DNA of 64,000 bases from Oscillospiraceae bacterium (GCA_015063385.1 SVUG01000005.1:5043-69042), one strand, 5' to 3'; numbered from the stretch's first letter, positions 2,363 through 44,927 are shown. The notes: generated by a model not told the origin, from the sequence alone. A program made the numbers and translations.

Positions 2363-2391
2363 AAAAAAAGAGCGGTGCTATTACACCGCTC
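2363..2391 (-). terminator. rho-independent terminator ending the fructan operon
   Basis: GAGCGGTG-CTATTA-CACCGCTC (2370..2391), followed on the minus strand by U7 (A-run 2363..2369). It lies immediately after the GH32 stop at 2397. Confidence 0.8.
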
Positions 2392-2396
2392 GTTTT

Positions 2397-3758: not shown

Positions 3759-3848
3759 ATTTATTCTTTCGTTTTTTGTGCCTCCCCCCACCGAGTTTGG
3801 CAGGGGAAGCTGTTTTGGTTAATTATGCGAATGTTTTAAGAGGGTTGT

Positions 3849-7742: not shown

Positions 7743-7799
7743 TTTCTTATACTCCATAATTTGATTTTTATTAGAGTTGCTAAAATTTAAATTTATTAT

Positions 7800-10256: not shown

Positions 10257-10269
10257 ATAAGCCTCCTTC

Positions 10270-12780: not shown

Positions 12781-12786
12781 AAAACC

Positions 12787-13704: not shown

Positions 13705-13705
13705 A

Positions 13706-14680: not shown

Positions 14681-14710
14681 TTTTCTTTGACCTCTTTGGA
14701 GTTTAAAATA

Positions 14711-16027: not shown

Positions 16028-16071
16028 AATTTCCTCCTTATATACAGCCTGCGGCTGTTTTTATTTTTTTA

Positions 16072-17040: not shown

Positions 17041-17106
17041 TTTTTCACCTCCCAATTAAATCACCTCCTCGCGCCGATTAGCGCGGAAAACGAAATAAAA
17101 TGGGTT

Positions 17107-20637: not shown

Positions 20638-20650
20638 TAGTTTTCCTTTC

Positions 20651-21556: not shown

Positions 21557-21557
21557 T

Positions 21558-22883: not shown

Positions 22884-22886
22884 AAA

Positions 22887-24335: not shown

Positions 24336-24410
24336 AAACGACTTCCCCTTTTTACTAATAACTGTCAATTACACTTAATGTATGTATAAAAAACAACAAG
24401 TTAAGCGTTT

Positions 24411-25548: not shown

Positions 25549-27237
25549 TTATATCAATTTGTCTTTTATCATTGAGTTGATTTTTTCTCTGACGGACAGC
25601 AGCTCTGCTGCGGTGTGGACGTAAGAGTTATGAACCACGGGGTATCCTACGGTGTCCTCTATCGCTTTGAGCGTGCTTTCTCTGCCGCAAAGGCTCTCAC
25701 ACAGCTCAAGGGCGCGCATATCGTCTATACCCGCCTTGAAGCTGATTAGTCTCAGAGATTCCAAACAAGAGCCGTCGCGCGCGGGATAAACAGAAAAAGC
25801 ATCGCCCGCGGGAAGCCACGCCTCGCCCGATAGCTCAAGATAGGGGTTAATCGGATACAAGGAGTCACAATTATTATAGAAATTGTATCCCCAGTGCAAG
25901 AATCCTGCTATATTATGCGAATAGAGCTGCATACCTATAGATCTCGTGCGACAGGAGGGTGCTGCTATCAGATGACCTGCATACAGGGGCTGAACGCAAT
26001 AGTACGTCCATAAGCCTTTGACGTTGGCCTCAAGGAACGGCTCAATACGTCCAATAGAAACCACGGGAGTGCCGAGAATACCCTCCGAGTAAAACTCAAA
26101 GTCGGACATTGCATCCATAATTTTGTAGTCGGATACACACTCCTTGACGACGTCCGTTGCCTGCTTGTAGATTTCTATATGCTCGCCGGTCGGCTCGTCG
26201 GAAATATGGAAGCTGCATCGCTTATCGTCGCCGCGGTTTTTCATATGCGATATAAAATCAGAGAGGAAGGCACGGAGAAATCTGTGATATTCCTTGTCGG
26301 TAGATGAGGTTTCCCAGCCAAAGAAGCGCTTGTACTCTCCGTTTTCATATCCCATAATCTTCGGCGCGTGCGCAGCACCGCCCTGGGTAAAGAGATGAGA
26401 AATCTCAAAATATTCAATTCCAACCCTATCACACATATCGATAAAGCGATCGAGAAGCGAATATTCAAAATAGTATTCTCCCTCTCGCCTTTCCACTCGC
26501 ACGAGCTGTGCGGTGAGCCTTTCCCCGCCCTTCAGGGTATCCAGTGGCGGTGTGAAAACGGGAGTAAGGAGCATATTTATACCGTTTTTGACTGCTATTT
26601 TTACAAACCCTTCTACTATCTGCCAGTGCCTTTCCGACCACATCGGGACGTTATAATACATCGCCAGGCTATCGTAATGGAACCACTGGGTATATGCCAG
26701 CCTCTGCTTTGGCAGAATAGCGTTTATAACCTCTATAGACACGCGGGCGGTAGCCATGCGCTTGCCATCAAGCTTGGGACTGTAAAAGGAAACTATGAAA
26801 TCGCCCTCTCCGATAATACCGGTGTCATTCTCGGGGATTTCTATATCCAACAGCAGTGCCTCAAGGCTATCTGCATTAGGCCTGACCGCGCCGTCGGTAG
26901 TCATCGGCAAGAGCACGTCGGGATAAAGACCGGGCGTTGTGCGCAAAAGTCCCTCATCGTTTAAGGTCCTGAGCGTAGGCTTGTAAACGGGAACGGATTT
27001 TATCTGATGAAGCCTTGCATACTTTGCCAGCCGACCGGATAGCTTCACCTCGAACCGATCCTTTAAGACGTCGTTTATACAAATCGAGTCGTTTTCATCG
27101 GGAATGTACGAATAAAGTATCTGCAACGTAAGCCTTTCGCCACGCAAAGCGCTGATATAGTCAAGCGAATCGTAGCTTTCTATTTTTTCATCAAGGAAGG
27201 GCTTTTCGAGCCCCGATACTATTTTAATGTTTAGCAT
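25549..27237 (-). CDS. DUF4091 / GH123-like glycoside hydrolase, no signal peptide
   Basis: 562 aa. The N-terminus MLNIKIVSGLEKPFLDE is typical of DUF4091 proteins, and there is a central HISDEP block (candidate Asp-Glu catalytic pair). The family call is from memory. Confidence 0.6.
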   Translation of the reverse strand: MLNIKIVSGLEKPFLDEKIESYDSLDYISALRGERLTLQILYSYIPDENDSICINDVLKDRFEVKLSGRLAKYARLHQIKSVPVYKPTLRTLNDEGLLRTTPGLYPDVLLPMTTDGAVRPNADSLEALLLDIEIPENDTGIIGEGDFIVSFYSPKLDGKRMATARVSIEVINAILPKQRLAYTQWFHYDSLAMYYNVPMWSERHWQIVEGFVKIAVKNGINMLLTPVFTPPLDTLKGGERLTAQLVRVERREGEYYFEYSLLDRFIDMCDRVGIEYFEISHLFTQGGAAHAPKIMGYENGEYKRFFGWETSSTDKEYHRFLRAFLSDFISHMKNRGDDKRCSFHISDEPTGEHIEIYKQATDVVKECVSDYKIMDAMSDFEFYSEGILGTPVVSIGRIEPFLEANVKGLWTYYCVQPLYAGHLIAAPSCRTRSIGMQLYSHNIAGFLHWGYNFYNNCDSLYPINPYLELSGEAWLPAGDAFSVYPARDGSCLESLRLISFKAGIDDMRALELCESLCGRESTLKAIEDTVGYPVVHNSYVHTAAELLSVREKINSMIKDKLI

Positions 27238-27272: not shown

Positions 27273-28565
27273 TTAAACGTCACCGCTATATATAGTTCTT
27301 TCTTGGTCAAAATCTTTTTTGCATCGCTTGAAATAATACACCGACAGTAAAATTACGGACAAGGTACAAACAAGTGACGCTATCTGCTGTGCGTATATTT
27401 CTTTACCGAAAAGGAAAATTCTTTGTTGTTGAACGTAATCGTAAAGAGGACTTACGAGAAGCGTTGTTAAAAAGGAAGCAATTCCTACCACGACGTTTAC
27501 CACGGAAAAGGCGGCAACGCGCTTATCCATCGGTACTATATCATATATCATATTATTGTAGCTGACCGTGTGCATCTGAGCATACAGAGCGTGCAGGAGC
27601 ATATATAACAAATACGTTATATGACCGTTATCTCTATTCGAGACAGCCAAAATGAAGAACGCGGCAATCGCTACGGGCCAGGCTGCACCGAAAATCTGGG
27701 TATTGGAATATCTTTTCGAGACTTTAGTCAATGCAAAGAGAACAAGTATTTGAAATACGTTCGTCACAGACGTAATCACGGAAACGTAGCCGAGAGAAAA
27801 TCCCAGCTCTTTGATTTGATAAGTTCCGGTAAAGGGAATGATAACGAACGTAGCACAGTGCCAAAGGCCGTACAAAATCAGCATCTTACGAAACGGCTTA
27901 TCGTGGAACAAAAAGTTAACGTGTTCTCTGATTTTGCTTTTTTCTTCATTTTTCTTCGGCTTTTCTTTGGATAAAAGCATAAGCAGCATATCCAAAAGCG
28001 CCATAACGAATATACCCACCGAAACAAATAAAAACGCCTGCTCTAGCCTTTGATTTTTATCAAAATAATCATAAAAAGCGCCTAAACCCAGGGTGAATAC
28101 CGTTCCGGTAATCGACGACACGAGAGACACGACCGCCTGAAATACAGAGCGCTCCGAGTTATCTACCATACTGAAGAACCAATTCATCTTCAGCGGTGTC
28201 ACGATGCTTATAGTCGCCTTTGATAAGAGGAGAGCGCCTACTATAATCAAGGCAACGTGCTTGTTTATCCTCAGCGTCGGAACAAGATAAATAAACGCGA
28301 GTGATGCAGTGGAAAGAAATGAAAAGGGGACTACCCAGGATTTTGCCGTAGACTTCGCCGCCAAGGGTATGCTAACCAGCTGGAACACGAAGCTTAACAT
28401 ATTAAACGTCGTAAGCACAGCCGTCAGGCCGTCGCTTATTCCCAGGCTGGTCGTAAGCTTGGCAAAATACGCCCCGCCGTTCAAAATCTGAATGAAATAC
28501 GTCAGTGCGACACTGATTATGTACGCCGTGCGCGACGCCTTAAAGCTGTCTTTTTCTGCTATCAT
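27273..28565 (-). CDS. MFS transporter
   Basis: 430 aa, about 12 hydrophobic segments with a central charged loop (KEKPKKNEEKSKIREH). Confidence 0.8.
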   Translation of the reverse strand: MIAEKDSFKASRTAYIISVALTYFIQILNGGAYFAKLTTSLGISDGLTAVLTTFNMLSFVFQLVSIPLAAKSTAKSWVVPFSFLSTASLAFIYLVPTLRINKHVALIIVGALLLSKATISIVTPLKMNWFFSMVDNSERSVFQAVVSLVSSITGTVFTLGLGAFYDYFDKNQRLEQAFLFVSVGIFVMALLDMLLMLLSKEKPKKNEEKSKIREHVNFLFHDKPFRKMLILYGLWHCATFVIIPFTGTYQIKELGFSLGYVSVITSVTNVFQILVLFALTKVSKRYSNTQIFGAAWPVAIAAFFILAVSNRDNGHITYLLYMLLHALYAQMHTVSYNNMIYDIVPMDKRVAAFSVVNVVVGIASFLTTLLVSPLYDYVQQQRIFLFGKEIYAQQIASLVCTLSVILLSVYYFKRCKKDFDQERTIYSGDV

Positions 28566-28623: not shown

Positions 28624-31600
28624 TTATTCTGCTGTAATTGCGCTGTAATAAGTATTGTCAAGGTAAATGCTGCCCTGAGTTTTTGCCGGAATATGCACTC
28701 GAATAAATCTTAGCGCGCTTGTGGTTTTGGTATTGGAGCCTGTGTAAAGAAGCTCACCGTTAACGTAGACTCTTATCTCGTTTCCGGTCGTGCTCATGTT
28801 TTTAAACTCGTATCTGATATTGAACCACTCGCCCTCGTTAAGCGACACCTGCTTATCTCCACACATCAGGCTATAGGTTGTAGTACTGTCCGAGTTACTG
28901 ACGACACAAAGCCTTGCCTGTGGCATACCGTTCCAGTGAGTAGCTATGCTGGCTGCCTGCGAATTGGAGCTGTAGAAAGCAAGGAACTCATAATTGTTAT
29001 CGGATCTGCCGCTTCCGGCACCCGTAAACATAATGTCGGTTTCGAAAACGTACTTGCTTCCCAAGGCGTCTGCTTGAATATTAAAATATGCTTCGGAGTT
29101 GTAGGCATTATTTGAAAGCTTGAGTGCAGAGTCACCGTCAACCAGCTCGACAGATGCGCTCATAGTAGCACCGTCCAAGGTGCCAGTGCCGCTAGTAATG
29201 AGCTTACCTGCTTCGCCAAGCGCGGTTGCCGTGGTGTCGGTATAGGTCAGGGTGTTATCGTTATCCGCATAAGCACCGTTGCCTCTGCCGGCAGTGGCAG
29301 GGGTATCGCCGGGCTGCTCAGGCTCATCTGCCACGGGGTCAAGCGCACCGAAGTAGACGTTATCAAGATGAAGTATACCGCTCGTCTTGTCGGGCATCCA
29401 TATTACCATAGATGCGAGCGACGAAGTCTTCTTGTCGGTCGTACCCGTATGAACGAGCGTTCCGTTCAGATAATACTTAACGTCGCCGCCGGTGGTGACG
29501 TCAGCTATGTCTATTCTGACGTTATACCACACCTCAGGAGTCAGCTCGATTTTAGTCGTATTGCCCTCGCCATTATTAACGCTCGCAACGAAGTAAAGCT
29601 TTCCGTCCTCTACGGTGATTGACGCACCTATGCCAAAGTACGCCGTGTTGGAGCTTTTCGTAGTAGAGCCCCAAAGCTGGAAGGCTATCTTGTCGGTTCT
29701 GCTGCTGCTCGCACGGTCAAGCTTTAGGTCTGCTTCGAGAACGTAGTGCTTGCCGCTGTTAGTCAAGGAATTGAGATAAATATATCCTGCCTTGCCGTAA
29801 GCGTTGCCAAGCTTGAGAGCGTTGTCATCGCCCTCGGGAGCAACCATTATACCTGCTGCAAATGCATCAACGTTTACCGCACTGTCAGCGCCGAGCTCGC
29901 CGCTTTCTATGAGATCGCCTGCGGTAGTATCGGTGAAGCCGAGAGAACCGTCCTTGTAATCACCTGTGCCGCGGTTAACGCTCGCGGAATTGTCGGTGCT
30001 ATCGGCAGGAATATCGGCTATCGCAACAGGAGTTATTACTGCGTCGTCCGCGTTGGGAATTACCGATGCGTCAATGCAGGTCTTGCCCGCTACGGTCTTG
30101 ACGAGTGCATAGCTCACGCTCTCGCCCTGAGTGATCTTTACCGCCTCCCAGGTATCGGGAGTGAGAGCTCTTACCGTAAGAGGATAGTTATAAATATTCT
30201 GATCAAGAGTATGAGTAAGAGTAAGCGTTATGGTATTCTCCGCGCTGACTGCCGTCACGGTAGCTGCGTGAGCCTCACGGGTGTAAAGCACGGCATCCTC
30301 GTAGAAGGCTACCCATACCTTGCCGTCGTTCTGAAGCCTTGCAACTGCCTCACATATGGTACGCAGATCCTTCTCGTACATCTGATTTGATGAAAGAGTA
30401 TCGTTGTTCGCCGCTAGCATATGAGTGAACAGCACTGCCATCTCACCGTTCTGTGTCTTCTCTATCGCGCTGAGTATTTCATCAACGTTCGAGCCGGAGA
30501 ACTGATAAGAGGGTGAAAATTTCCAATCAACGTTTTTGTCGGAGAGGCTGATATTCGCATTGCCGTAGGAATCTCTGCCTGCAATATAATAATTACCAAC
30601 CATCTCTTTCATTACCGCGGAGAATCTGTCGTCGCCGTACGTCGCCTTCTCGCTCCAGTATCCCGGATATGCATAAGTAAGCACGCGCTGGGACGGGAAC
30701 GCCTCGCGCAGAACGCTCTGCGAGGTAATAATCTCCTTGGTTATCAAGCCTGCGGAATCGTCAAGACCGGGGAAGTTGTGAGTCATGGAGTGCGAGCTGA
30801 GCTGCCATCTGCCCGTATCGAGATATCTTTGCCAGGTTGCAATTTTGCTCGCGTCAAGCACGCCGTCGGTATAAATTGCACCATTTGGATACATCGCAAT
30901 ATTTCCGCGAAGACCAAGCTCACGAAGCACCTCATCCATGATGTACATAGTACTTGATGCATCGTCGTGCATAAGAACGACTATACCGTCAGCACCGGTT
31001 GCAGTGGAGAGGATATTTGCACTGTTCTGAACGGTGTCGGCAGGATCGGGAGGAGTGATAACAACCTCATCGCCCGAGCCGCCCTCGTCACCCTCCTCCC
31101 CGGCGTCAAGCGCACCGAAGAAGGTGTTGTCAAGAGAAAGAGTTCCGAGTGCCTTCGTAGGAAGCCAAATTCTTATATACGAAAGAGCCGTACAGCTCTT
31201 TGTGGTAGCAAGAGTATTTATAAGCTCTCCGTTAAGATAATATTTTACTGCAGAGCCTGAAACAGAAACGTTTTCAAATTCAACCCTGAGGTTAAACCAC
31301 GTGCCCGCAGCAACCTGGTATTTTGCCGTGCCAATCTCTATGCTGATAACGCCGTCGTTGATACAAATTACAGGTCTGGTCCAGAACCAAGCAGTTGCAT
31401 CAGCGCTGCTGCCGGCAAGTATTTCGTAGAGCGCGCCGCCATCACGAGCACTGCTGTTGGCAATAACGGAGGAGTCAAGCATCATATCGGTTTCAAAGAC
31501 GTACTTTGTACCCGAGGTCGATGCCTTTATATTCAGATAACCCTGAGGTATATACTGATTATTTCCAAGAACGAGGGCGTTATCACCCGCCGCGGCTGCA

Positions 31601-34600
31601 ACCTTAATGAATATATTTTCTCCGTCAAGAGTTGCACCGTTGTTTGCTACGAGCTTACCTGCTTCTCCAAGGGCGGTTGCCGTAGTGTCGGTGTAGGTTA
31701 AAGTGTTCTCGTTGCTTGCGTAAGAGCCGCTGCCGCGAACGTACGTCGGGCCGGGAATTGCGGGAAGCTCAACCTTAGGCTCTTCCTGCTCGGGCTCGTC
31801 GGGCAAAATATCGCCCGTTGCCGCGAAGTAGGTGTTGTCAAGATACATTTTTCCGGTAGTATTCAAATTAAATCTAAGAAGCATATGGGAAGCTCCGCTT
31901 GCGGCTCTGGTATTTGCCGCAGAGTGAACGAGCTCACCGTTAAGGTAATACTTCACGAGACTGCCGCTTGCAAGTCCCTCAATTTCTATTCTCAGGTTGT
32001 ACCACTTGCTTGCTTCAAGAGCGCCCTCATAAGAATTGCCCTCTGCGTCAGTTCCTGCAAATGCAAGAGAATATGCGCCGTCTACAACTCTTATGCTACC
32101 CGAAGCACCGCCCCAGAAAATAGAATCAGAGGCATTCTGCGCGAGATAGAAGGAGAACAGATTGTTGTCGTCAGGACGCCATTCCGAGCCGCTCATAAGA
32201 GCAAAGTCGGTTTCAAATATATACGACGAGCCTGAGCGCTTTTCAGTGGGAAGAATGTAGAGCCACGGGTCACCCGTTCCGGTGGTTTTACCGTAATCAA
32301 GAGCCGCATCGCCCTTAATTCCAACTATTTTAGCGTATGCCATTCCCGAGATGTCACTTGGGTCGTAGGTCAGGCCGCTCGTGCCGAGCTTCTTGTCTAT
32401 GCTGAGAAGAGTAGCATTGGTGTCGGTGTACTGCACCGCGCTGTCCTTCTTGGTACCCGTGCCGCGTTTCGTCGCGTCGATAGCACCCGCTCCGACGATT
32501 TCCTCAATATTTACGGGAGGAATAATTACCGTATCGTCCTTAGGAAGATCCTTAACCGCGGAGAAATAAACGTTATCCATCAGAATCTGGCTCAGAGAGC
32601 TCTTGAGTCTGATACGTATCTGCATTCTTGCCAAAGCGTCGGAGGTGGCAGTGGTCAGTCTCTTCTGAACGAGAGTGTCGTTAATATAAATTCTTACCTC
32701 GCTGCCCTTCGTGCTTATATCCTGAATCTCTATACGGTAGTTATACCATACCTTCTGGTCGATAAACACGTTCTTGGCTGCGTCTACGTTGTAGCGCTGA
32801 ACTCCCTCGTAAACGTCAGCACTATATATGTGCGGGCTCGCAGAGAAGAATATTTTTCCGTTCTCGTCAGCGAAGAAGAATGAAAACAGTTGCTTGTCGT
32901 CCATCGAGGTCGTACCGTCTATGATACATATATCGGCTTCGAATACGTAGCTGTTAGCGTCGGTGGACTGAGCGTAAAGGTAGAGATACGGGTCACGCTG
33001 AGCTGATTTCTTAAAGGAAAGAATATTGGAGTAATCTCTGTCCTCTATAATAGTCGCATTAGTGGAGTAGTTGTAGTTATCAAACAAAAGCTGAGTAGGC
33101 TTATCAGTACCCAAAATGCCCTTGTTTACCATAGCGGTTGCCGTGGTTTTTTCAAAGTCGAGAGAATTCTCCTTGTACTTACCCTTGCCGTAATTGTCAC
33201 CGTTGTCAATCTCCAGATGAATATCCTGATCCACCTTAAGAGCGTGACCGAGATGAGCAAGGATATAGTTAAAGTGATACATATCAGCAGACGTGTATAT
33301 CGGCACCATGTTGCTTATGCCAAGGCAGGTATATATCAGAGATACAGTTCCTGAGGTACAGATATTAGTCGCGTTTACGTCACCCTCCTCGGTGTAAGGA
33401 AGTGCCGCAACGCAGCCCTGAGACTCATGTGCGGAATATTTGGGTGTGTAAGAGAATGAGCCGTCAGGCTTCATGAACGTAGCAAGCTTTTCTTTCGTTG
33501 CAGAGATAAGCTCTGCTGCCCTCTCGCGAAGATCGCTTCTTGCATTATCAACGATTGCTATGCCCTCCGGTCCGCCCGAAAGCGAGAGTATGCTGAATAT
33601 GTTGCTTATCGTAAACCAGGTGTTATAAATATCTACGCAAGCACCAACCTCCTCGTCGGAGCTGATGGCATCCATAGCCGCGCGAAGCGCCTTGTCGGAG
33701 TTGGGCATCATAACCTGTGCCGCCTCGTATACGCAGGAAATCTTCATTACGCCGTTTACTGCGTAATATTCAGAATAGGAGGGGTCGCTCTCGGATACGT
33801 AGTACCAGGTACCCGTTTCCTTGTTCTGCGCGTCGTTGAGGTGCTCTATCAAAATCTCTATGAGGTCATAATCCGCGCCCTCTCTTTGAAGCTCGTAATT
33901 GCGGGATCTTATCGTGTTGAAATATGATGCAAGAGTATTACCTGCTGCATAGGAATTATTCTTTACGTCAAGCGTGTTGAGGTAATTTCTGAAGCTCTCC
34001 TCATCGGCAAGATTTGCGTCGGTATTGGAGGCGGTCAGAATTGCCTCGGAAGCACCAACTGCAAAGCTTCTGGAAAGTCTTGCGGTTAGAGCCGCCGCGA
34101 GCTTCACACCCGAGCCCTTCACTCCGTTGGGAGTATCGTAAATGGGCTGAAGACCAAGTCTTTGAAGAATGCTCTCCGAACGCATAAGGTCACGGCCCTT
34201 ACGGCTGGTGCTGACTCCGTCACCCCACTGAGGATGATAGAAATATCCGCTCTCATCCTGAAGCGAGATAACGAATCTACCAATCTGGTCAAGAATTTCA
34301 TCGGGAAGGCTCTTGGTATAGTCGACGGTCATACCCGAGTTCTCAAGGAATGATAGTATCTGCTGCGTGCTTTCAACGTCAGGCAGATAGCCTTTAGTAT
34401 TTCTTGCGCTGTTAGAGTAATAGAAGCCGCCCGTGCCGCAGCTTGCGCCGCCTGCACATACGTCCGCAATGCACTGGCAGATTTCAGGCTCGTAAAGGTT
34501 TGCCATCCATACTATGAGGTCATCGCTGTAAATGGTATAAAGATCCTTGAGGGCGGAAACGATTTCCTCACCGTTCTCAAAGCTGCTTGCAATCACGCCC

Positions 34601-35166
34601 CACTGAGCCTCGCGCAAAATTTCGTCCTCTGCCGAGTAGAATTCAAATATATTAGCCGCGTCCTTGTGCACCACTCCGGGCTCAAGAACAAGCGCGTCAA
34701 CAACAAGATTCTTTACACAGTAATCAATCGCTGCGCGAACGCCTATGTAATCGTCATTTTCTTCAAAGGCTATTGCTATCGACTTTCCGTCGGTATATAT
34801 AAGCCATTTGACGTAGTTTTCCTCGTCGTCGGCAATCTCATCGGAGAGATAGAGGTCGGCAAGTCTTCTGTACGCCTCTATAGCAACAGGGCGGTTGGAC
34901 ATACCCACGACTATTTCATTTTCGTACGGAGTGCCGTCCTCTTCAGCCATCTTCACGTTAGTTTTCAGCGCCAGGGCGTTAGAAAACGTCGAGGCATATC
35001 CGCCCGAATACTCGCTGTCGAGGAAGCCGAGAGTTGAACCCTTGGAGTATATCGCCCCTTCAACAACCTCGGGTCCCTCGTCATTTCCTTTTATCAGGAA
35101 TATGGCGGTCACGACTCCGGCTATCGCCAGAATCAGCGCTACTATGATAATTGCAATTCTTCTCAT
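28624..35166 (-). CDS. giant membrane-anchored surface protein: N-domain + repeat-helical toroid-like domain + 5 LamG-like modules + CE4-like deacetylase insert
   Basis: 2180 aa with N-terminal signal anchor MRRIAIIIVALILAIAGVVTAIFLI. Blocks are shared with the 437-, 693- and 894-aa neighbours. LamG-like signature W[YF]N[LVIY]R[IV][ED]...[VI][KR][YV]Y[ILV]N[GD][ET]L...[LM]DN[TV][YF][FY] occurs five times. CE4-like motifs LMHDDAS, HSMTH, YAYPGY and LFTHML. Confidence 0.85.
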   Translation of the reverse strand: MRRIAIIIVALILAIAGVVTAIFLIKGNDEGPEVVEGAIYSKGSTLGFLDSEYSGGYASTFSNALALKTNVKMAEEDGTPYENEIVVGMSNRPVAIEAYRRLADLYLSDEIADDEENYVKWLIYTDGKSIAIAFEENDDYIGVRAAIDYCVKNLVVDALVLEPGVVHKDAANIFEFYSAEDEILREAQWGVIASSFENGEEIVSALKDLYTIYSDDLIVWMANLYEPEICQCIADVCAGGASCGTGGFYYSNSARNTKGYLPDVESTQQILSFLENSGMTVDYTKSLPDEILDQIGRFVISLQDESGYFYHPQWGDGVSTSRKGRDLMRSESILQRLGLQPIYDTPNGVKGSGVKLAAALTARLSRSFAVGASEAILTASNTDANLADEESFRNYLNTLDVKNNSYAAGNTLASYFNTIRSRNYELQREGADYDLIEILIEHLNDAQNKETGTWYYVSESDPSYSEYYAVNGVMKISCVYEAAQVMMPNSDKALRAAMDAISSDEEVGACVDIYNTWFTISNIFSILSLSGGPEGIAIVDNARSDLRERAAELISATKEKLATFMKPDGSFSYTPKYSAHESQGCVAALPYTEEGDVNATNICTSGTVSLIYTCLGISNMVPIYTSADMYHFNYILAHLGHALKVDQDIHLEIDNGDNYGKGKYKENSLDFEKTTATAMVNKGILGTDKPTQLLFDNYNYSTNATIIEDRDYSNILSFKKSAQRDPYLYLYAQSTDANSYVFEADICIIDGTTSMDDKQLFSFFFADENGKIFFSASPHIYSADVYEGVQRYNVDAAKNVFIDQKVWYNYRIEIQDISTKGSEVRIYINDTLVQKRLTTATSDALARMQIRIRLKSSLSQILMDNVYFSAVKDLPKDDTVIIPPVNIEEIVGAGAIDATKRGTGTKKDSAVQYTDTNATLLSIDKKLGTSGLTYDPSDISGMAYAKIVGIKGDAALDYGKTTGTGDPWLYILPTEKRSGSSYIFETDFALMSGSEWRPDDNNLFSFYLAQNASDSIFWGGASGSIRVVDGAYSLAFAGTDAEGNSYEGALEASKWYNLRIEIEGLASGSLVKYYLNGELVHSAANTRAASGASHMLLRFNLNTTGKMYLDNTYFAATGDILPDEPEQEEPKVELPAIPGPTYVRGSGSYASNENTLTYTDTTATALGEAGKLVANNGATLDGENIFIKVAAAAGDNALVLGNNQYIPQGYLNIKASTSGTKYVFETDMMLDSSVIANSSARDGGALYEILAGSSADATAWFWTRPVICINDGVISIEIGTAKYQVAAGTWFNLRVEFENVSVSGSAVKYYLNGELINTLATTKSCTALSYIRIWLPTKALGTLSLDNTFFGALDAGEEGDEGGSGDEVVITPPDPADTVQNSANILSTATGADGIVVLMHDDASSTMYIMDEVLRELGLRGNIAMYPNGAIYTDGVLDASKIATWQRYLDTGRWQLSSHSMTHNFPGLDDSAGLITKEIITSQSVLREAFPSQRVLTYAYPGYWSEKATYGDDRFSAVMKEMVGNYYIAGRDSYGNANISLSDKNVDWKFSPSYQFSGSNVDEILSAIEKTQNGEMAVLFTHMLAANNDTLSSNQMYEKDLRTICEAVARLQNDGKVWVAFYEDAVLYTREAHAATVTAVSAENTITLTLTHTLDQNIYNYPLTVRALTPDTWEAVKITQGESVSYALVKTVAGKTCIDASVIPNADDAVITPVAIADIPADSTDNSASVNRGTGDYKDGSLGFTDTTAGDLIESGELGADSAVNVDAFAAGIMVAPEGDDNALKLGNAYGKAGYIYLNSLTNSGKHYVLEADLKLDRASSSRTDKIAFQLWGSTTKSSNTAYFGIGASITVEDGKLYFVASVNNGEGNTTKIELTPEVWYNVRIDIADVTTGGDVKYYLNGTLVHTGTTDKKTSSLASMVIWMPDKTSGILHLDNVYFGALDPVADEPEQPGDTPATAGRGNGAYADNDNTLTYTDTTATALGEAGKLITSGTGTLDGATMSASVELVDGDSALKLSNNAYNSEAYFNIQADALGSKYVFETDIMFTGAGSGRSDNNYEFLAFYSSNSQAASIATHWNGMPQARLCVVSNSDSTTTYSLMCGDKQVSLNEGEWFNIRYEFKNMSTTGNEIRVYVNGELLYTGSNTKTTSALRFIRVHIPAKTQGSIYLDNTYYSAITAE

Positions 35167-36476
35167 TCAGATATGCTCCTTTCGGTTGTTTTTTCGGTTA
35201 ATCTTCTTTTTTCAATTATGCTCATATATCTATCAAAATCACAGCGTACAAAAAGCGGTACCTTGTAATCGGACAGGTCAAGTCCGCGGTAAACGTGGGA
35301 TAACAGTCCCGTTGCCGCAAGAATATGTCCGTTTATATCTCCCTCAGGGCTGCGCTCTATCGCTACGGGCATACCCTGTGAGGTTTGCGAGGAGAAATTA
35401 ACGCCGTAGGAGAACGAGCCGCTCTCCTTTTTAAACGCCACGACCTTTTTTGCCGTTGCGCGAATGGCTTCGGGTGCGGCGGCACGCACGGTGCGGATTA
35501 CCTCCTCCGCTTCCCTTTCGCCGTTCTCACCGCACTCGCGGAGCGAGCGAATCAGGTTGCCTATGGCAAACCAAGGGTTAAAGAGGTCTACTGCCCCGTT
35601 GACAGGCTCGTCGGAGAGCAAAACTCTGATGCAAGAGCCTGCAAGAGCCTTCGCGTGAGGGACTATGCGATGCATACCGTTGTATACACAAGTGATTTTC
35701 ATAACGCCGTTAATGGCAAAATAATTTTCTTCTTTATGCCACAGTCCGTTTTCGAACTGATGCTCATTCAAAAAATCAATACACTGATCCACAAGGCCCG
35801 CGTGCTTTATCATATCGGTCTGGCACGTCAGCTCGTGTCCTGTGGAGTATGATTGCTCGTTTATATTCCTTGATTCGAGGAATTCTGCAAACTTTTCTTT
35901 ACTTTTAAGGTGTTCAGGAAGAACTATGTCCTTTGATTCCTTTGCTTTTGCTCCGTCTGAAATGGAGACGTATTTCTTCGTTCTGCCGAAGGAGTTGAGT
36001 ATTTTGTTCGCCCACATCAAATCTCTGCTTCGTCTGGAGAAATTGATGTCCTTGCCCCAATGCTCGTGATAAAAATATCCGTCGGGGTCCTGCAGAGAGA
36101 GCGTCCATTCTGACAAATCATTCTGCATCCAATCGGGAAGCGCAAGTGACAGCTTGTTATCAAAGTCCTCTATCATTCCGCTGGACTCAAAGAAGCCAAG
36201 CGCCTGCGAGGTCGACTCAAGATCGGGACGCAGAAGATAGGTCTTACCCTTATATTCTCGGCTATCGTTGTCACGCGCACTGGCTGAATAATACCAGCCT
36301 GCACCGCTGACGTCATATAACGAGGCAAACCAGTCTATTGCATCGGGAGTATACACCTCGTACAGCTCCTTCATAGCATCGACTATCTCCTCACCGTTTT
36401 CACCGCCGATGGCGGCTGCAAGCGCGCGCCATCTGGGCTCGCGTATCTGTTCTCTTTGAATTTTATAGCTGTCCAT
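35163..36476 (-). CDS. cytoplasmic stand-alone paralog of the repeat-helical toroid-like domain
   Basis: 437 aa, no signal peptide. Colinear with aa about 183-640 of the 2180-aa protein (NGEEIV.A.K.LY, LQDPDGYFYHEHWG, AINGVMKITCVY, KKESGSFSYG). Its stop overlaps the next ATG (ATGA at 35163..35166). Confidence 0.8.
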   Translation of the reverse strand: MDSYKIQREQIREPRWRALAAAIGGENGEEIVDAMKELYEVYTPDAIDWFASLYDVSGAGWYYSASARDNDSREYKGKTYLLRPDLESTSQALGFFESSGMIEDFDNKLSLALPDWMQNDLSEWTLSLQDPDGYFYHEHWGKDINFSRRSRDLMWANKILNSFGRTKKYVSISDGAKAKESKDIVLPEHLKSKEKFAEFLESRNINEQSYSTGHELTCQTDMIKHAGLVDQCIDFLNEHQFENGLWHKEENYFAINGVMKITCVYNGMHRIVPHAKALAGSCIRVLLSDEPVNGAVDLFNPWFAIGNLIRSLRECGENGEREAEEVIRTVRAAAPEAIRATAKKVVAFKKESGSFSYGVNFSSQTSQGMPVAIERSPEGDINGHILAATGLLSHVYRGLDLSDYKVPLFVRCDFDRYMSIIEKRRLTEKTTERSISE

Positions 36477-36511
36477 AATTTCACCTAAAATAAGATGGGA
36501 TTGCTTCCCTT

Positions 36512-36561
36512 GGGTAGTTAATTTGCAAACTACCCCCGTACCACTGCTGACACGGGGGTAG
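36512..36561 (-). promoter_or_regulatory. two mutually exclusive hairpins between the 693-aa and 437-aa genes
   Basis: GGGTAGTT(36512..36519)/AACTACCC(36528..36535) and CTACCCCCGT(36530..36539)/ACGGGGGTAG(36552..36561) share nt 36530..36535. On the minus-strand RNA the 10-bp hairpin comes first and is followed by UUUGCAAAUU. Confidence 0.4.
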
Positions 36562-36586: not shown

Positions 36587-38668
36587 TTACTGAATCGCCT
36601 TAAAGCATGTGTTGTCAATGTAAATATTTGCAGTAGAGCTTGGAGGTGCCCAGAGACGAATGAAGCGGAATGCCGTAGTGGTCTTAGTTGTAGCACCGGT
36701 GTATATAAGCTCACCGTTTACGTAATATTTAATTGCGCTACCGGTTGTCTTCCAGTCTTCAAACTCGAATCTGATATTCACCCACTCACCGGGGTTAACG
36801 ACCACCTTGCCTTCTCCGCGCTCGACGTAATAGGTTGTCACGTCATCAACCGTCTTCGCAGTGAATGCAAGAGATGTCATGCCTCCCCAGAAGGACGAAC
36901 TACCGTCAGTAGCCGTAGAGCTGTAGAACTGAAGGAACTCGTAATTCTGAGAGCTTCTGTTACTTGTAGCATCGATGAACATAATATCTGTTTCGAAAAC
37001 GTACTTATTTTTATTAAGAACGTCACTGGCAATATTGAAATATCCTGCAGATGCACTGGGATTGTTGGAAAGATGAAGCGCAGCATCACCATTTACGTTA
37101 ACTACTGATGCAGTGATACCCTCGCCGTCGAGAGTTGCACCGTTGGTAGCTGTCATCTTGCCTGCCTCGCCAAGAGCGGTTGCTGTAGTTCCGGTATAGG
37201 TAAGAGTGTTAGCGTCGGATGCGTAGCTACCCTCGCCGCGGCTACCTGCGTTGCCAACCGTGCCGAAGAAGGTGTTATCAAGGTAGAGAGTACCGGTAGC
37301 GGTCTTTCCATCAGCGCCGGGCATGCAAATACGTAGCTGGGAAATGCTGTTAGTGCTGGCAGCCTTCGTGCCCGAGCCAACGAGCTGACCGTTTACGTAG
37401 TATTTGATAACGTGATCAGCCTGCTTAACGTCCTCGAACTCAACGCGAAGGTTAATCCAGGAGTCAAGATCAAAGGTATAATCAAGACCCGTTGCAGTCA
37501 TTCTCAAAACGGGATTTTCGGCATCGGTAGTATCGTAGCTGATAGTAATGCTATCAAGCGCCCAGTTAACAAACGTCGCACCACCGTAATAGATGTGGAA
37601 GATTTCGCCGCCGGTACGCGTGCTTGCACAAGCAGCAACGTCGCTGTTAACCTTCAGGTCGGTTTCAAACGCGTAGACGTTGCCAATCTCGGGGCTGAAT
37701 CTGGGAATGTTTATGTAAGCCTCGTTTGAAGGAGCATTGCTTACGAAGCGTAGCGCGTAGTCACCGTTATCAAGCACGTGCTCTGCGTATAGGCCTTCAT
37801 TTTCAACGGCTTCACCCTTTTGAGTAGTGGTTGCCCACGTAGATATATTGCTAAAATCATTAGCACGGTCAAGGTAAATACCCGTACCGCGATAGGTGTG
37901 AGGAACGCAAAGAACGCTCTCTGTGACGCTGAAGGTTTCACCGTCAGATACCGTATCAACAAGCTCGCCTGCCTTGTTGTAGAGATTCCAGGTATCTGCC
38001 TTCTCATCACCCGTGTAGGTAAGAGAAATTTCGTCACCTACGAGGTAAGCACCCTTCTTATACTCTCCTGTGACGATACCGTCGGTCACCTTAACGTATC
38101 TGTAATTGGTGGGAATATCGTCTGCACCGCCGGGATAGTAATCGAGAAGAAGCTGTGCTGCGTCGCCTGCTGCAAGGAGCTTGCCGTAAGCCTCAGCCTT
38201 ATCCTCGTTATCGGTGGTAAAGATCATCTCGTTAAGATACTCAACTACGCTATATCTTCTCACAGGGCTCTTCGTGCCGTCAGCGGCAACAGCCTGAACG
38301 AAGAACTCGGTAGCAAGGTTCTTGAGTGCAACACCGGGAGTCTCAAACGCACGGCAGGTATAGCTTACGTCCTCGCCGCCGGGAATTACTACTTCCTCGT
38401 GAGCGGTGACGGTAGCAAGAAGCTCTGCCTCTGCATTCTTATCGGGATCTGCGGCGTATACGTTGAGCACCAAGCCCTCGGTATCCACGTTCTCGGGATA
38501 AACCGCATAGTAGAGATACATTTTTTCTGAATATTCAACCTTCTGGCTGATGATGTTAAGGCTCTTTTCAGGCTCACTCTCAACTGCAAAAGCAGTAATG
38601 CCGATGCAAGAAGCAACAAGGAGAACGAGCGAGATAGCCAGAACTATAATTTTAGTCTGTTTTTTCAT
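36587..38668 (-). CDS. secreted/lipoprotein member of the LamG-module family (unknown N-domain + 2 LamG-like modules)
   Basis: 693 aa. Signal MKKQTKIIVLAISLVLLVASC. The C-terminal module resembles the last module of the 2180-aa protein, including the linker RGEGSYASDANTLTYTGTTATALGEAGKM. Confidence 0.85.
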   Translation of the reverse strand: MKKQTKIIVLAISLVLLVASCIGITAFAVESEPEKSLNIISQKVEYSEKMYLYYAVYPENVDTEGLVLNVYAADPDKNAEAELLATVTAHEEVVIPGGEDVSYTCRAFETPGVALKNLATEFFVQAVAADGTKSPVRRYSVVEYLNEMIFTTDNEDKAEAYGKLLAAGDAAQLLLDYYPGGADDIPTNYRYVKVTDGIVTGEYKKGAYLVGDEISLTYTGDEKADTWNLYNKAGELVDTVSDGETFSVTESVLCVPHTYRGTGIYLDRANDFSNISTWATTTQKGEAVENEGLYAEHVLDNGDYALRFVSNAPSNEAYINIPRFSPEIGNVYAFETDLKVNSDVAACASTRTGGEIFHIYYGGATFVNWALDSITISYDTTDAENPVLRMTATGLDYTFDLDSWINLRVEFEDVKQADHVIKYYVNGQLVGSGTKAASTNSISQLRICMPGADGKTATGTLYLDNTFFGTVGNAGSRGEGSYASDANTLTYTGTTATALGEAGKMTATNGATLDGEGITASVVNVNGDAALHLSNNPSASAGYFNIASDVLNKNKYVFETDIMFIDATSNRSSQNYEFLQFYSSTATDGSSSFWGGMTSLAFTAKTVDDVTTYYVERGEGKVVVNPGEWVNIRFEFEDWKTTGSAIKYYVNGELIYTGATTKTTTAFRFIRLWAPPSSTANIYIDNTCFKAIQ

Positions 38669-39546: not shown

Positions 39547-40296
39547 ATGATTTCACATATAGGTACGAAGGCTACGCTGGCACCCCAGGATTTGTATCCC
39601 GACCACACTCATCATTGCTTTGAAATAACCTATATACACGAGGGGTGCGGCTTTATGCACACCGCAAACGGTGACATGCCGTTTGAGAAAAACAGCTTTT
39701 ACATTATACCGCCCAACGCGATACACAGTCTGGTTTCAGCCAACGGGCACATAGCAACGTCCATGCTAACCAGAAACGAGCGCCTATCAAGCATACGCGA
39801 CGTGATGTGGGCAAGAGACGTTGATAATCACGAGCTCGAGAGCATTATAAAAATTATGGTCGAGCACAGGAGCGACCTTGGTGAATTTTTGCAGTATCTC
39901 GGAAAGGCCGTGGTGCTGATTATGCTTGATTTGATTGGAATAGACGAGCTGGAGCAGGCTCGTTCTAAGGCCGTTGAGCAGATAATTACCAAAATCAACC
40001 GTCATTTTTCCGACCCTGAGTTCAAGGTTAAGACCGCGCTCGAAGAATCGCCTTACGCTGAGGATTACATCAGAGAAATTTTTAAGGCACAAACCGGCTT
40101 GACGCCAATGCAGATGCTCTCCGAGGTGCGCCTCAAGCACGCGGAAAATATTATGCTTTACTCATTGTCGGAGCGTTCAATATCCAATATTGCGCTAGAG
40201 AGCGGATTTGACGACCTCGCTTACTTTTCCAAGGTGTTCAAAAAGCGATTTGGAATGTCGCCCGCGGAATATAAGAAAAAGAACGGCAAGCTCTGA
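39547..40296 (+). CDS. AraC-family transcriptional regulator (cupin sensor + AraC HTH)
   Basis: 249 aa with GGAAGGAG RBS. The C-terminus ISNIALESGFDDLAYFSKVFKKRFGMSPAEYKK is a typical AraC second HTH. Confidence 0.9.
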   Translation: MISHIGTKATLAPQDLYPDHTHHCFEITYIHEGCGFMHTANGDMPFEKNSFYIIPPNAIHSLVSANGHIATSMLTRNERLSSIRDVMWARDVDNHELESIIKIMVEHRSDLGEFLQYLGKAVVLIMLDLIGIDELEQARSKAVEQIITKINRHFSDPEFKVKTALEESPYAEDYIREIFKAQTGLTPMQMLSEVRLKHAENIMLYSLSERSISNIALESGFDDLAYFSKVFKKRFGMSPAEYKKKNGKL

Positions 40297-40363: not shown

Positions 40364-42076
40364 TTAAAACGTTTTTGTTTGTTTTGTTATATTTCGGTAT
40401 ATTTCCTTCACCGCGAAGAAGGACGCCTTCGGATTTCTGTATTCGTTAAGAAGTCCCTTGTTGTTGTAGCCTCTTGCGCGAGAAATTCCCGCCTCGTACG
40501 AGGTTCTGACGTCACAGAATTGCCAGATGTACGTGCCGACCATCATGGGATCGCCAAGGAACAGATTCAAGCAGTGCGAAAGCAATCTCGCCTGATATTC
40601 CTCGCTCCAGCGATAAGTTTCAAAATTGCGGTGACCGTACACTGCTGCGCCGCCGAACTCGCTCATGATTACGGGCTTGTTATCAAAGCCGAGCTTGCTC
40701 CTGTACGCGCGGAAGTCCTCGATGAATTTACCCCAGGATTCAATGTCACCCTCGTACCAGCCGTTGTACTGGTTAAGACAGATGATATCACAGTATTCAA
40801 ATGAAATATCGCTAAGCGCCTTGTTAGAAGCATAGGTGACGATGCGGTTGCCGCCGATTTCCTTTAAGAGCGAGTAATACTTTTTAGTCATTTCAAGACC
40901 GGCAACGGTATCCGAAAGAATTTCGTTATGCATACCCCAAATTATGATAGAGGGATGGTTGTAATAATGCTTTACCATCTCACGATGCATTTCCTCGCCT
41001 CGACGAATTACCACGGGGTCAAGAAGCACGCTCTCCTCAAATCCAACGCCCCAAATCGGGATTTCGCTCCAGAAGGTTATTCCCCTCTCGTCGAGCATGT
41101 CAACGAATGCAGGATTGTTTGGATAATGAGCTCCGCGGAGCGAGTTGCAGCCCATGTCGACAGCAATATCAATGTCGCGCCTCATGAGCGCGCTCGGAAA
41201 GGCAAAGCCGAAGTCGGGGTGGTCCTCGTGCCTGTTTACACCGCGGATGCGGTATTCGCTACCGTTGAGCAAAATTTTGCCGTCGCTCACGCATATTTTA
41301 CGGAAGCCAACGCGGTCAAAAAGGTCATCAGATGAGGTTGAAATTTTCACATCATATAGTGCCGGATTTTCCGCAGACCATAGCGAAAAATCAGTAATTT
41401 TGACAGCATTTGTAAATTCTTCTTTACATTCCCCCGCTTTTAAGAGCGATTCAAATTCAAAATCGGCGCCCGCGACGCTAACCCTTATAGTATCTTTTAT
41501 TTCTTTTTCGGAGGCATTATACAGTTCAAGGGCGACTCGAAGATTAAGCTCGCAAAGATCGTCGGAAAGCTCGTACTCCACCCTGTTTGAAAGTATCGAA
41601 ACACCCTCAAGGCGCTCAACGCTTACGGAACGAATAATACCTCCGCAGTGATACCAGTCGACCAAAGCCTGTGGAATCGACTGCTCGTCGAAGGAATTGT
41701 CTACTCTTACGGTGAGTCGATGCTCTCCGCTTGTGACGTCGCGCACTATCAGCTCAAAGGGGCAAAAGCCGCCGTAATGATAGCCTATTTCCTCTCCGTC
41801 AAGATAAACTCGCGACTCGGTCATCACCGCACCGAAAACAAAGCGCAGCGTGCCGCCGTGGCTGAAGAATTGACGCTCGTACCAAGCCACTCCCTCGTAC
41901 TCGAGCAATCCAAGCTGGGTATTCCATACGGACGGCACTATCACCGTCTGTGCGTTGGGAATCCCTCTTTGCCATCTTTCGCTATCTCCTCGATTATCGG
42001 GGTCGGTTGCAAATTTCCACGCTCCGTCGAGCGACTGCACAGCTCTTTTTATGTGTTCATCAAAAAGCCTCGTCAT
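40364..42076 (-). CDS. GH2 glycoside hydrolase (beta-glucuronidase/beta-galactosidase type), no signal peptide
   Basis: 570 aa. Motifs GAWKFATDP, YEGVAWYERQF, NRHEDHPDFG, IIWGMHNE (acid/base block) and VIMSEFGG (nucleophile block). Confidence 0.85.
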   Translation of the reverse strand: MTRLFDEHIKRAVQSLDGAWKFATDPDNRGDSERWQRGIPNAQTVIVPSVWNTQLGLLEYEGVAWYERQFFSHGGTLRFVFGAVMTESRVYLDGEEIGYHYGGFCPFELIVRDVTSGEHRLTVRVDNSFDEQSIPQALVDWYHCGGIIRSVSVERLEGVSILSNRVEYELSDDLCELNLRVALELYNASEKEIKDTIRVSVAGADFEFESLLKAGECKEEFTNAVKITDFSLWSAENPALYDVKISTSSDDLFDRVGFRKICVSDGKILLNGSEYRIRGVNRHEDHPDFGFAFPSALMRRDIDIAVDMGCNSLRGAHYPNNPAFVDMLDERGITFWSEIPIWGVGFEESVLLDPVVIRRGEEMHREMVKHYYNHPSIIIWGMHNEILSDTVAGLEMTKKYYSLLKEIGGNRIVTYASNKALSDISFEYCDIICLNQYNGWYEGDIESWGKFIEDFRAYRSKLGFDNKPVIMSEFGGAAVYGHRNFETYRWSEEYQARLLSHCLNLFLGDPMMVGTYIWQFCDVRTSYEAGISRARGYNNKGLLNEYRNPKASFFAVKEIYRNITKQTKTF

Positions 42077-44816: not shown

Positions 44817-44927
44817 TTTACAATCTCCTTCTATCAACGGCAGCGATTCAAAGCTCAACTATTAATAATCGATGCCGATGCAAAATCTCGTTTTAAAATT
44901 ATCCTTTTAAAAGGTTAATTCACCCTA

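Follow-up and report, generated by a model that had tools for sequence, protein, structure and literature searches.

A 64,000-nucleotide stretch of DNA from an Oscillospiraceae bacterium (GCA_015063385.1, SVUG01000005.1:5043-69042; called the window here, with positions counted from its first nucleotide) encodes three copies of a predicted all-helical domain, X. One copy forms a whole cytoplasmic protein of 437 amino acids (aa), and the other two are embedded in exported proteins of 2180 and 894 aa. The 437-aa gene lies between genes for a secreted 693-aa protein, C0, and the 2180-aa protein. This C0-Xs-XL cassette (Xs and XL being the standalone and large X proteins), together with a divergently transcribed AraC-family regulator, is a typical member of a family of such cassettes in uncultured Clostridia. 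A first-pass annotation, made from the sequence alone, had proposed domain X as a candidate new catalytic module and as the best candidate for a missing depolymerase. The analysis described here examined the copies of the domain, its predicted fold, its conserved residues and its genomic setting.

Three copies of domain X

The 437-aa protein consists of domain X alone, as had been claimed. Its full length can be aligned to residues 177-636 of the 2180-aa protein (BLASTP, 32% identity, E 9e-69), and it has a hydrophilic N-terminus and no signal peptide. A tblastn search detected one further copy only in the window (33% identity, E 1.5e-77). This copy is in the 894-aa open reading frame (ORF), outside the interval 33250-36476 to which the domain had been assigned. 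The neighbouring 693-aa protein was considered for the role of second exported copy and rejected, as it shows no similarity to X. The 2180-aa protein begins with a transmembrane signal-anchor (MRRIAIIIVALILAIAGVVTAIFLI), and a start at Met15 would give the 894-aa protein a lipoprotein-type signal (MKRVISLILVLVLTVSSMASC). Alignments, tblastn and N-termini are thus in agreement with the earlier proposal of two exported copies and one cytoplasmic copy.

The 894-aa ORF was called mechanically from a TTG codon (44858), and the Met15 start, at 44816 on the minus strand, yields the canonical lipoprotein signal. The public gene call of the identical protein (P0173, 863 aa) begins at Met32 and so loses the signal peptide.

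The features around the three copies are listed in Table 1. The local operon on the minus strand runs in the order C0, X (437 aa), XL, MFS transporter and GH123 (glycoside hydrolase, GH, family 123). The junction sequence bears out the reported overlap of the 437-aa and 2180-aa genes: the stop of the first and the ATG of the second share 4 nucleotides (nt), ATGA at 35166..35163, with AGGAG upstream. Within the 110-nt gap between C0 and the 437-aa gene, TTTGC follows an inverted repeat rich in GC, CTACCCCCGT...ACGGGGGTAG (36505..36560, minus strand). This repeat could be a partial terminator or attenuator that raises the level of secreted C0 above those of X and XL. Further along the window are genes for a GPH transporter with glucuronide-transporter similarity, nagA, manA and a ROK protein.

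Table 1. Positions of the copies of domain X, their companion domains and the neighbouring genes in the window
Feature	Position	Strand	Basis
X (437 aa), standalone cytoplasmic protein	35163..36476	-	ORF and translation; domain X alone
2180-aa membrane-anchored surface protein (XL)	28624..35166	-	ORF and translation
N-terminal transmembrane signal-anchor of 2180-aa protein	35086..35166	-	Translation, junction sequence
N-dom of 2180-aa protein, residues ~28-176, predicted GH20b-type alpha/beta domain	34639..35085	-	Homologous to N-dom of 894-aa protein
X domain of 2180-aa protein, residues 177-636	33259..34638	-	BLASTP, tblastn
C-terminal part of 2180-aa protein: five ConA-like/LamG modules and CE4-type domain	28624..33201	-	
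Five ConA-like/LamG modules of 2180-aa protein	32542..33201, 31807..32472, 31099..31761, 29332..29976, 28627..29301	-	Module alignment
Divergent CE4-type esterase/deacetylase domain, residues 1385-1640 of 2180-aa protein	30247..31014	-	Profile match
894-aa lipoprotein ORF	42174..44858	-	
Predicted GH20b-like N-dom of 894-aa lipoprotein, residues 36-205 (lipobox Cys is residue 35)	44244..44753	-	
X domain of 894-aa lipoprotein, residues ~207-655 (second exported copy)	42894..44240	-	tblastn
Single C-terminal ConA-like/LamG module of 894-aa lipoprotein	42174..42848	-	Aligns with modules of 2180-aa protein
C0, secreted 693-aa protein: Sec signal, family-specific N-terminal domain, two ConA-like modules	36587..38668	-	Translation
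AraC-family regulator, cupin/AraC_binding and HTH_18, divergently transcribed upstream	39547..40296	+	Pfam
MFS transporter, downstream of 2180-aa gene	27273..28565	-	Pfam
GH123 beta-N-acetylgalactosaminidase-family protein, downstream of MFS gene	25549..27237	-	Pfam
GH2 enzyme, downstream of 894-aa gene; best NCBIfam similarity to beta-glucuronidase, below cut-off	40364..42076	-	Pfam, NCBIfam

Fold of domain X

Domain X has no match in Pfam, NCBIfam or the PDB sequences, either as a single sequence (phmmer) or as a 62-sequence profile (hmmsearch against PDB); its best PDB-sequence matches, a GPCR fusion, an antibody and Trm1, are chance. An AlphaFold2 (AF2) model of the 437-aa protein, built from the 62-sequence alignment, is all-helical and confident, with a predicted local distance difference test score (pLDDT) of 96.9 and a predicted TM-score (pTM) of 0.94. 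DSSP assigns about 15 helices and short hairpins at the Gly-aromatic motifs. The best Foldseek matches in the PDB for X alone are all alpha/alpha toroids (E 0.04-0.5, TM-score 0.28-0.42). At the top are the class II terpene cyclases drimenyl diphosphate synthase and MstE (probability ~0.9), and further toroid matches include C3d/C3b, GH105, GH88, the polysaccharide lyases (PL) PL38 and PL17, ECAM (the E. coli alpha-2-macroglobulin) and transcobalamin. Taken with the search of the two-domain model described below, the top matches are these two cyclases and a squalene-hopene cyclase (probability 0.85-0.93), and GH76, GH127 and CD109 are also among the toroids. The toroid matches are weak overall (E 0.01-1, TM-score 0.25-0.42), with E of at least 0.05 and TM-scores of at most 0.41 for GH105, GH88, GH76 and GH127, and probabilities of only 0.1-0.33 for PL38 and PL17.

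The alpha/alpha toroid call of the first-pass annotation, correct at the level of fold class, is based here on the confident all-helical model and on top matches that are toroids without exception. The check it had proposed, structure prediction of 35163..36476, returned toroid-class neighbours, both terpene cyclases and six-hairpin GH and PL families, none of them significant. The model supports placing X in the alpha/alpha toroid class, with a leaning towards the terpenoid-cyclase/prenyltransferase lineage, and sets it far from every solved structure.

Domain X fails membership both of the six-hairpin carbohydrate-active enzymes (CAZymes) and of the cyclases and prenyltransferases, because defining motifs and significant similarity are absent. 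For GH88, GH105, GH76 and GH127, no significant similarity was found in sequence (Pfam, NCBIfam, PDB) or structure. The prenyltransferase/squalene-cyclase repeat families PF00432, PF13243 and PF13249 gave no gathering-threshold match in the 437-aa protein or in 62 homologues. Scanned singly, 4 of the 62 matched Prenyltrans (best E 0.0023) and one SQHop_cyclase_C (E 0.0084), all below threshold. Class II cyclases carry a catalytic DxDD (or DxDTT) motif at the N-terminus of an inner helix. The 437-aa protein lacks D.DD, and the 30 of 508 domains that contain it do so in no conserved column. The Zn site of a prenyltransferase beta subunit or LanC-like protein (Asp/Cys/His or Cys/Cys/His) requires a conserved Cys, but in no column is Cys present in at least 50% of 507 domains, and the only conserved His is H137.

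These results bear on the idea that X acts on an isoprenoid or lipid-linked substrate, for example polyprenyl-linked envelope intermediates at both membrane faces, with the cassette serving to build or remodel the envelope. The identity of the top Foldseek matches favors this idea, as do the weak Prenyltrans and SQHop_cyclase_C matches in 5 of 62 members, the membrane-proximal position of exported X right after the lipid anchor, and the DUF212 (divergent PAP2 family) neighbours found in 6 of the related loci described below. However, X has neither the DxDD motif nor a conserved Cys for Zn, and its conserved residues are mainly charged or polar, whereas cyclases have a hydrophobic cavity lined with aromatic residues. 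Genes of an isoprenoid pathway were not noted in the neighbourhood, and at least 10 AraC-regulated cassettes per genome are more typical of catabolism. An isoprenoid substrate is accordingly judged very improbable.

Conserved residues

Conservation was assessed in 507 unique X domains, 262 standalone and 245 embedded. The same 36 positions reach 90% conservation or more in each of the two classes, cytoplasmic and exported, and at no position does the residue change from one class to the other. They include W49, Y62, D85, E87, Y136, H137, W140, R148, R151, D152, W246, K260, N300, E378, D380 and N382. Because these positions are common to both classes, the two kinds of protein would share one site and presumably one chemistry. 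The first-pass annotation had advised looking for conserved acidic residues across homologues, and such residues exist: D85, E87, D152, E378 and D380 are invariant in both classes, and they are accompanied by the polar residues H137, R148, R151, K260 and N300. Six-hairpin glycosidases have two catalytic carboxylates, or one plus substrate assistance, in the central pocket. The (alpha/alpha)n lyases (PL5, 8, 15, 17, 21 and 38) use an Asn/His/Tyr/Arg catalytic set, for which N300, H137, Y62 or Y136, and R148 or R151 are conserved candidate residues in X.

According to DSSP, most of the residues conserved at 90% or more are in Gly-aromatic turns or at the N-termini of the helices that follow. In prenyltransferase, terpene cyclase and thioester-containing domain (TED) toroids, such positions line the central depression. 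By analogy, the conserved residues of X probably line the mouth of the toroid.

The domain had originally been recognised by recurring [DE].G.[FWY] signatures. All six of the peptides quoted are present in the translations, but only three strictly fit the pattern; the other three read DG.F. The three loose matches in the 437-aa protein are not significant alone (shuffle mean 0.96, P ~0.08). The motifs are nevertheless real, because they occupy columns (G133, G244 and W246) that are 98-100% conserved across the homologous domains, and not because of the number of matches. A fourth repeat, GAGWYYS (family consensus GGFYYS), had escaped notice. D-G-x-aromatic repeats are structural hallmarks of the toroid fold and not evidence of an active site.

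Two features distinguish exported from cytoplasmic copies. A four-cysteine loop, CxC-x4-C-x6-C, at ~34426..34491 (minus strand) just ahead of the first GGFYYS repeat, has an equivalent in the 894-aa protein. It is present in 77 of 206 exported X domains and absent from all 183 cytoplasmic domains, and it might accommodate disulfides or a metal. Exported domains also have a conserved low-complexity insertion of about 40 aa (in the window, within 33250..34638), which cytoplasmic copies lack. Its consensus is P-x-Y-D-T-P-N-G-x-x-G-x-G ... L-T-x-x-L-x-x-S-x-x-x-A-V-S-K-V. Its pLDDT is below 50 (model residues 341-364 of the 894-aa construct), and it might act as a flexible lid or as a segment for interactions. 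Two exported homologues, P0282 and P0261, are fused to AhpC-TSA/Redoxin domains.

The X family and its cassette

A profile search of 1.84 billion representative proteins (clusters at 50% identity) matched 1,411 clusters with E <= 1e-3, of which 963 have E <= 1e-30. Among the best 150 of these, X either stands alone (~400-470 aa) or occupies approximately residues 175-650 of proteins of 650-2,400 aa. Named homologues are called 'hypothetical protein' and come from Clostridia metagenome-assembled genomes (MAGs), and a literature search found nothing relevant on the family or the cassette. A pattern scan of one genome per species gave 305 confirmed matches, and the best 80 of these, from which loci were analysed, fall in only 16 MAGs, nine of which have 5-10 loci each. 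The sources are deer-gut 'Clostridia bacterium RGIG', 'Eubacteriales bacterium' and 'uncultured Ruminococcus sp.' ORFs were called in the resulting set of 75 loci from 16 Clostridia MAGs, giving 873 genes and 177 X proteins.

In this set, the pairing of exported and cytoplasmic copies proves to be a family-wide rule and no local accident. A hydrophobic N-terminal segment is missing from 100 of 102 standalone X proteins and present in 68 of 75 large ones, most of the large exceptions being cut by contig ends. The consensus N-terminus of large X proteins is a lipobox, L-x-S-C, and the genes for cytoplasmic and exported X adjoin. C0 homologues occur in 40 of the 75 loci, co-directional with the X genes, and 21-23 loci have an AraC or PocR-AraC regulator beside the cassette; these are the only widely conserved neighbours. 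Genes for C0, Xs and XL are adjacent and co-directional, with C0-C0-XL-Xs, XL-Xs-C0 and C0-Xs-XL among the orders seen.

The regulators of the cassette mostly combine a PocR sensor with an AraC helix-turn-helix (locus L035, 4714..5568, and 22 other loci), and the window regulator has a cupin/AraC_binding sensor. In six loci (L003, L008, L028, L039, L045 and L050), a glutamate-synthase-small-subunit-like pair (DHODB_Fe-S_bind and Fer4_20/Pyr_redox_2) lies between the AraC and C0 genes.

Five loci without C0 (L001, at 3355..11275, L011, L015, L056 and L061) have tandem arrays of 4-6 complete standalone X genes that are ~35-45% identical and adjoin one or two giant X genes. A silent-cassette or antigenic-variation system was rejected for these arrays, since the copies are complete ORFs with their own starts, are only ~35-45% identical and keep the invariant residues. 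A toxin/immunity reading of the cassette was likewise considered and set aside, because standalone X is homologous to the exported domain over its full length and shares its conserved site. The paralogues are numerous, as in catabolic enzyme families: a MAG has 5-10 loci, counted in the best 80 matches, and tandem arrays hold as many as six standalone copies.

Companion domains of exported X

In every exported protein an alpha/beta domain of about 150 aa, N-dom, comes before X, and the N-doms of the 2180-aa and 894-aa proteins are homologous. A two-domain AF2 model (N-dom plus X) was made for the 894-aa protein equivalent from database homologues (pLDDT 89.3, pTM 0.85). Its Foldseek matches include four CpGH84A chains and the GH20 lacto-N-biosidase (LnbB) 5bxp (probability 0.92-1.00 over 128-140 columns, root-mean-square deviation 4.7-6.5 A), with weaker matches (0.63-0.66) to 8hvb and CpGH84D. 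The GH84 and GH20 matches are attributed to N-dom because they are absent from the search with X alone, the aligned region being deduced from the alignment length. Sequence searches for N-dom, by Pfam scan of 34 members and by PDB profile search, were negative, as was an hhalign comparison with the N-terminal part of DUF4838 proteins encoded nearby, which gave a probability of 1.2%. Judged by its modelled alpha/beta sandwich fold and its position, N-dom is a predicted GH20b-type accessory domain. In GH20, GH84 and GH67 enzymes, the GH20b domain is reported to lie always N-terminal to the catalytic domain (PMC4449183). By analogy, X appears to fill the slot of the catalytic domain.

Behind X, the ConA-like modules of the 2180-aa protein match Laminin_G_3 (2.1e-10) and, below cut-off, Polysacc_lyase PF14099 (5.3e-6) in Pfam. 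In 29 giant homologues, the Pfam partners of X are ConA-like (Polysacc_lyase PF14099, Laminin_G_3, Laminin_G_2 and Alginate_lyase2) or are Flg_new, SdrD_B, DUF4969, SO2946-like_C and, in 2 of 29, Polysacc_deac_1. No known GH or PL catalytic domain is among them, so that X remains the candidate for the catalytic module. Among the ConA-like modules of the 2180-aa protein, residues 1385-1640 form a divergent esterase/deacetylase domain of the CE4 (NodB) type. The motifs HDD (H15-D16-D17) and HSxxH (H74-S75-x-x-H78) are invariant in 12 homologues, whose profile matches 7ax7 at E 4e-4 and 2cc0, 6go1 and 8qpg weakly in the PDB. The window sequence by itself had no Pfam match, and phmmer against the PDB gave noise only. 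Among the proteins gathered there are 17 distinct CE4 segments, including that of the window. X thus belongs to the same polypeptide as a bona fide carbohydrate-active domain.

A non-catalytic role must be weighed at this point. X could be a ligand- or glycan-binding toroid (like C3d/TED, transcobalamin/intrinsic factor or a lectin-like scaffold) that organises the giant protein, the cytoplasmic copy serving to bind, sense or chaperone. The Foldseek matches do include the non-enzymatic C3d, ECAM, CD109 and transcobalamin, no transporter is consistently linked to the cassette, and much of the repeat conservation is structural. However, the thioester motif of C3 and alpha-2-macroglobulin is absent (C.EQ in 3 of 508 domains, GCGEQ in none), and the dense set of invariant charged residues and His, identical in paralogues that are 30-45% identical, is more typical of catalysis. 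Moreover, X stands behind a GH20b-like domain, where glycosidases put the catalytic domain (PMC4449183), and the giant proteins already have at least five dedicated binding-type modules. A pure binding role is for these reasons regarded as unlikely.

Genomic context

The related loci provide some carbohydrate context. Among 94 same-strand (operonic) neighbours in 52 loci are DUF4838 (4), GH20 (3), GDSL esterases (3), GH88 (2), GH39 (2), GFO/IDH/MocA (2) and SIS (2) proteins; others are FAD oxidoreductases, glutamate-synthase-like proteins, HPr kinase and more besides. The expectation that homologues would be found in carbohydrate contexts thus holds weakly: GH20, GH88, GH39 and DUF4838 are there, but transporters and CAZymes are not consistent neighbours. 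None of the findings named beforehand as contrary to a carbohydrate role (a different fold, no conserved pocket or acidic residues, homologues mainly in other contexts) was made, though on context the result is a weak one.

The neighbours also bear on the possibility that depolymerisation is the work of another part of the system, such as the ConA-like modules acting as beta-jelly-roll lyases of the PF14099/PL7 type, and that X is a downstream unsaturated uronyl hydrolase like GH88 and GH105, acting outside and inside. Foldseek matched GH105 4ce7 with a probability of 0.51 for X alone and 0.91 for the two-domain model, and GH88 3vxd with 0.35-0.54 (TMt 0.35-0.38). The modules have their weak Polysacc_lyase and Alginate_lyase2 matches, and in the window the GH2 enzyme is nearest to beta-glucuronidase and accompanied by the glucuronide-type GPH transporter. 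GH88 occurs in two related operons, so unsaturated uronates would arise near some cassettes. Against this, the PF14099 matches are below the Pfam cut-off, and the modules number five per protein, as binding modules do. A profile of the modules found no lyase and nothing else relevant among PDB sequences, and the modules were therefore rejected as lyases. Where GH88 is present it already supplies the activity in question, no KduI or KdgA family was found among the genes examined (adh_short and PfkB proteins, not typed, are in a few loci), and the similarity of X to GH88 and GH105 is not significant. We consider this arrangement quite unlikely.

A separate fructan locus lies at 859..24368 of the window, with GH32 genes, an ABC sugar transporter, LacI and PfkB. 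Two of its GH32 proteins are exported and multidomain (1176 aa; 836 aa with LamG_3) and one is cytoplasmic (464 aa), which is the exported-plus-cytoplasmic paralogue pattern of X in a known CAZyme family. Three proteins of this locus have no Pfam annotation: 1302 aa (3849..7757), 825 aa (7800..10277) and 441 aa (21558..22883).

Proposed function

The reading favored here, with a probability of about 0.45, is that X is the catalytic glycan-processing module of a new carbohydrate-active family. It draws on the shared polar residues, the localisation split and the carbohydrate-type companions described above. Several observations weigh against it. No Foldseek match of X reaches E <= 0.001 (best E 0.01-0.04, TM-score at most 0.42), and terpene cyclases are its best-scoring structural neighbours, at least equal to the six-hairpin glycosidases. 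Part of the conservation, in the Gly-aromatic turns and helix N-caps, is a requirement of the fold. The context in the window is not conserved: GH123 and MFS homologues are in none of the 75 loci and GH2 in 3 (GH2 is also in the close relative L006), and no homologue of the window ABC or MFS sugar transporters was found in the set. A protein with at least five transmembrane segments lies within two genes of X in only 8 of 75 loci, and about 85% of the 94 operonic neighbours are not recognisable CAZymes. In view of the lack of a significant structure match, the unconserved neighbours and the rarity of transporters, the narrower proposal that X is the missing depolymerase, a glycosidase or a lyase, is not established.

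If X is such a module, it would be the functional head of a substrate-inducible cassette for glycan processing at the cell surface, which might work as follows. An AraC or PocR-AraC regulator would switch on a co-directional operon for secreted C0, cytoplasmic X and a giant protein anchored by lipid or a transmembrane segment. The GH20b-like domain and X would sit next to the membrane, with the string of ConA-like modules, sometimes including a CE4 de-acetylase, reaching outward to capture an acetylated or amino-sugar-containing glycan. Exported X would cleave or modify the captured glycan at the cell surface, and cytoplasmic X would carry out the same chemistry on imported fragments, perhaps with an endo-acting copy outside and an exo-acting one inside. 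In the window, the MFS transporter, GH123 and GH2 would complete the pathway. One might conjecture that the substrates of the window copies are partly acetylated glycans containing N-acetylhexosamine (HexNAc) or uronate, because CE4, GH123, a beta-glucuronidase-like GH2 and nagA are found here and GH20, DUF4838 and GH88 elsewhere.

A more far-reaching version, which we hold to be doubtful, is that C0-Xs-XL is an unrecognised glycan-acquisition system, like a polysaccharide-utilisation locus (PUL), and apparently restricted to one clade of uncultured gut Clostridia. X would then be a toroid CAZyme of the cyclase/prenyltransferase lineage, with a new active site behind a GH20b-like domain and at work on both sides of the membrane.

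What is new is an unannotated family of alpha/alpha toroids in a heavily amplified cassette; the fold class itself is known. X genes rank with the largest and the most abundant genes of this clade, whose uncultured Clostridia come from ruminant and human guts. The cassette is a heavy investment for these genomes, each of which has at least 5-10 loci, many of them encoding proteins of 1,500-2,700 aa. If X is catalytic, it would found a new CAZy family and give a role to more than 1,000 sequence clusters of 'hypothetical protein', and the GH20b accessory domain could then serve a catalytic partner that is not a TIM barrel. The identity of the substrate would reveal the diet, and hence the niche, of the host Clostridia. 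Even if X is a binder and not an enzyme, the cassette would be a new kind of surface glycan-capture apparatus.

Comparison with known systems

The cassette resembles the polysaccharide-utilisation loci of Gram-positive bacteria in combining a regulator, surface-tethered multimodular proteins and intracellular paralogues, and in being present in many differently tuned copies per genome. It differs in that the conserved core has no transporter or recognised GH or PL and consists of three unannotated types of protein, C0, Xs and XL.

The GH20 and GH84 hexosaminidases (LnbB 5bxp, CpGH84A 6pv4) have an N-terminal alpha/beta domain of the same predicted fold directly before the main domain, and lectin or ConA-like modules downstream. 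HexNAc-type neighbours, GH123 in the window and GH20 and DUF4838 in related loci, add to the likeness. In contrast, the main domain of X is a predicted alpha/alpha toroid and not a (beta/alpha)8 barrel, and N-dom lacks a GH20b match at the sequence level (Pfam, PDB profile, hhalign). To our knowledge there is no precedent for a GH20b-like domain before a toroid.

The toroids of terpenoid cyclases and prenyltransferases (7xq4/8zg1, MstE 6sbb, squalene-hopene cyclase 8pak; PF00432) share with X the all-helical hairpin repeats and have the best Foldseek probabilities (0.85-0.93). X has four repeats, each with a Gly-aromatic turn leading into a helix that has a polar N-cap (consensuses GGFYYS...PDxEST, DGYFYH...SRRxRD, xNGLW...NGxMK and DGSFSY...EGDxN), and occasional sub-threshold Prenyltrans matches. 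Unlike these enzymes, X has no DxDD and no Zn-ligand Cys, its conserved residues are polar rather than aromatic or hydrophobic, and its similarity is slight (E of at least 0.01, TM-score of at most 0.42). It has no isoprenoid gene context, and its exported members, half of the family, are joined to ConA-like, GH20b-like and CE4 modules.

With the six-hairpin glycosidases (GH105 4ce7, GH88 3vxd, GH76 4boj/4d4b, GH127 5opj) and lyases (PL38 8bdq/9fi1, PL17 4nei), X lacks any significant match in sequence or structure, and catalytic residues cannot be equated. The likenesses are the fold class, the conserved carboxylates with a possible Asn/His/Tyr/Arg set, and companions of carbohydrate type, both as domains (N-terminal accessory, ConA-like and CE4) and as genes (GH123, GH2, GH20, GH88 and GH39). 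An exported multidomain protein and a cytoplasmic single-domain paralogue in one locus are a further likeness, as with the GH32 proteins of the window. Overall, the domain and gene setting of X is closest to that of a six-hairpin CAZyme, and its fold, as far as the predicted structure can tell, to that of a terpene-cyclase/prenyltransferase toroid.

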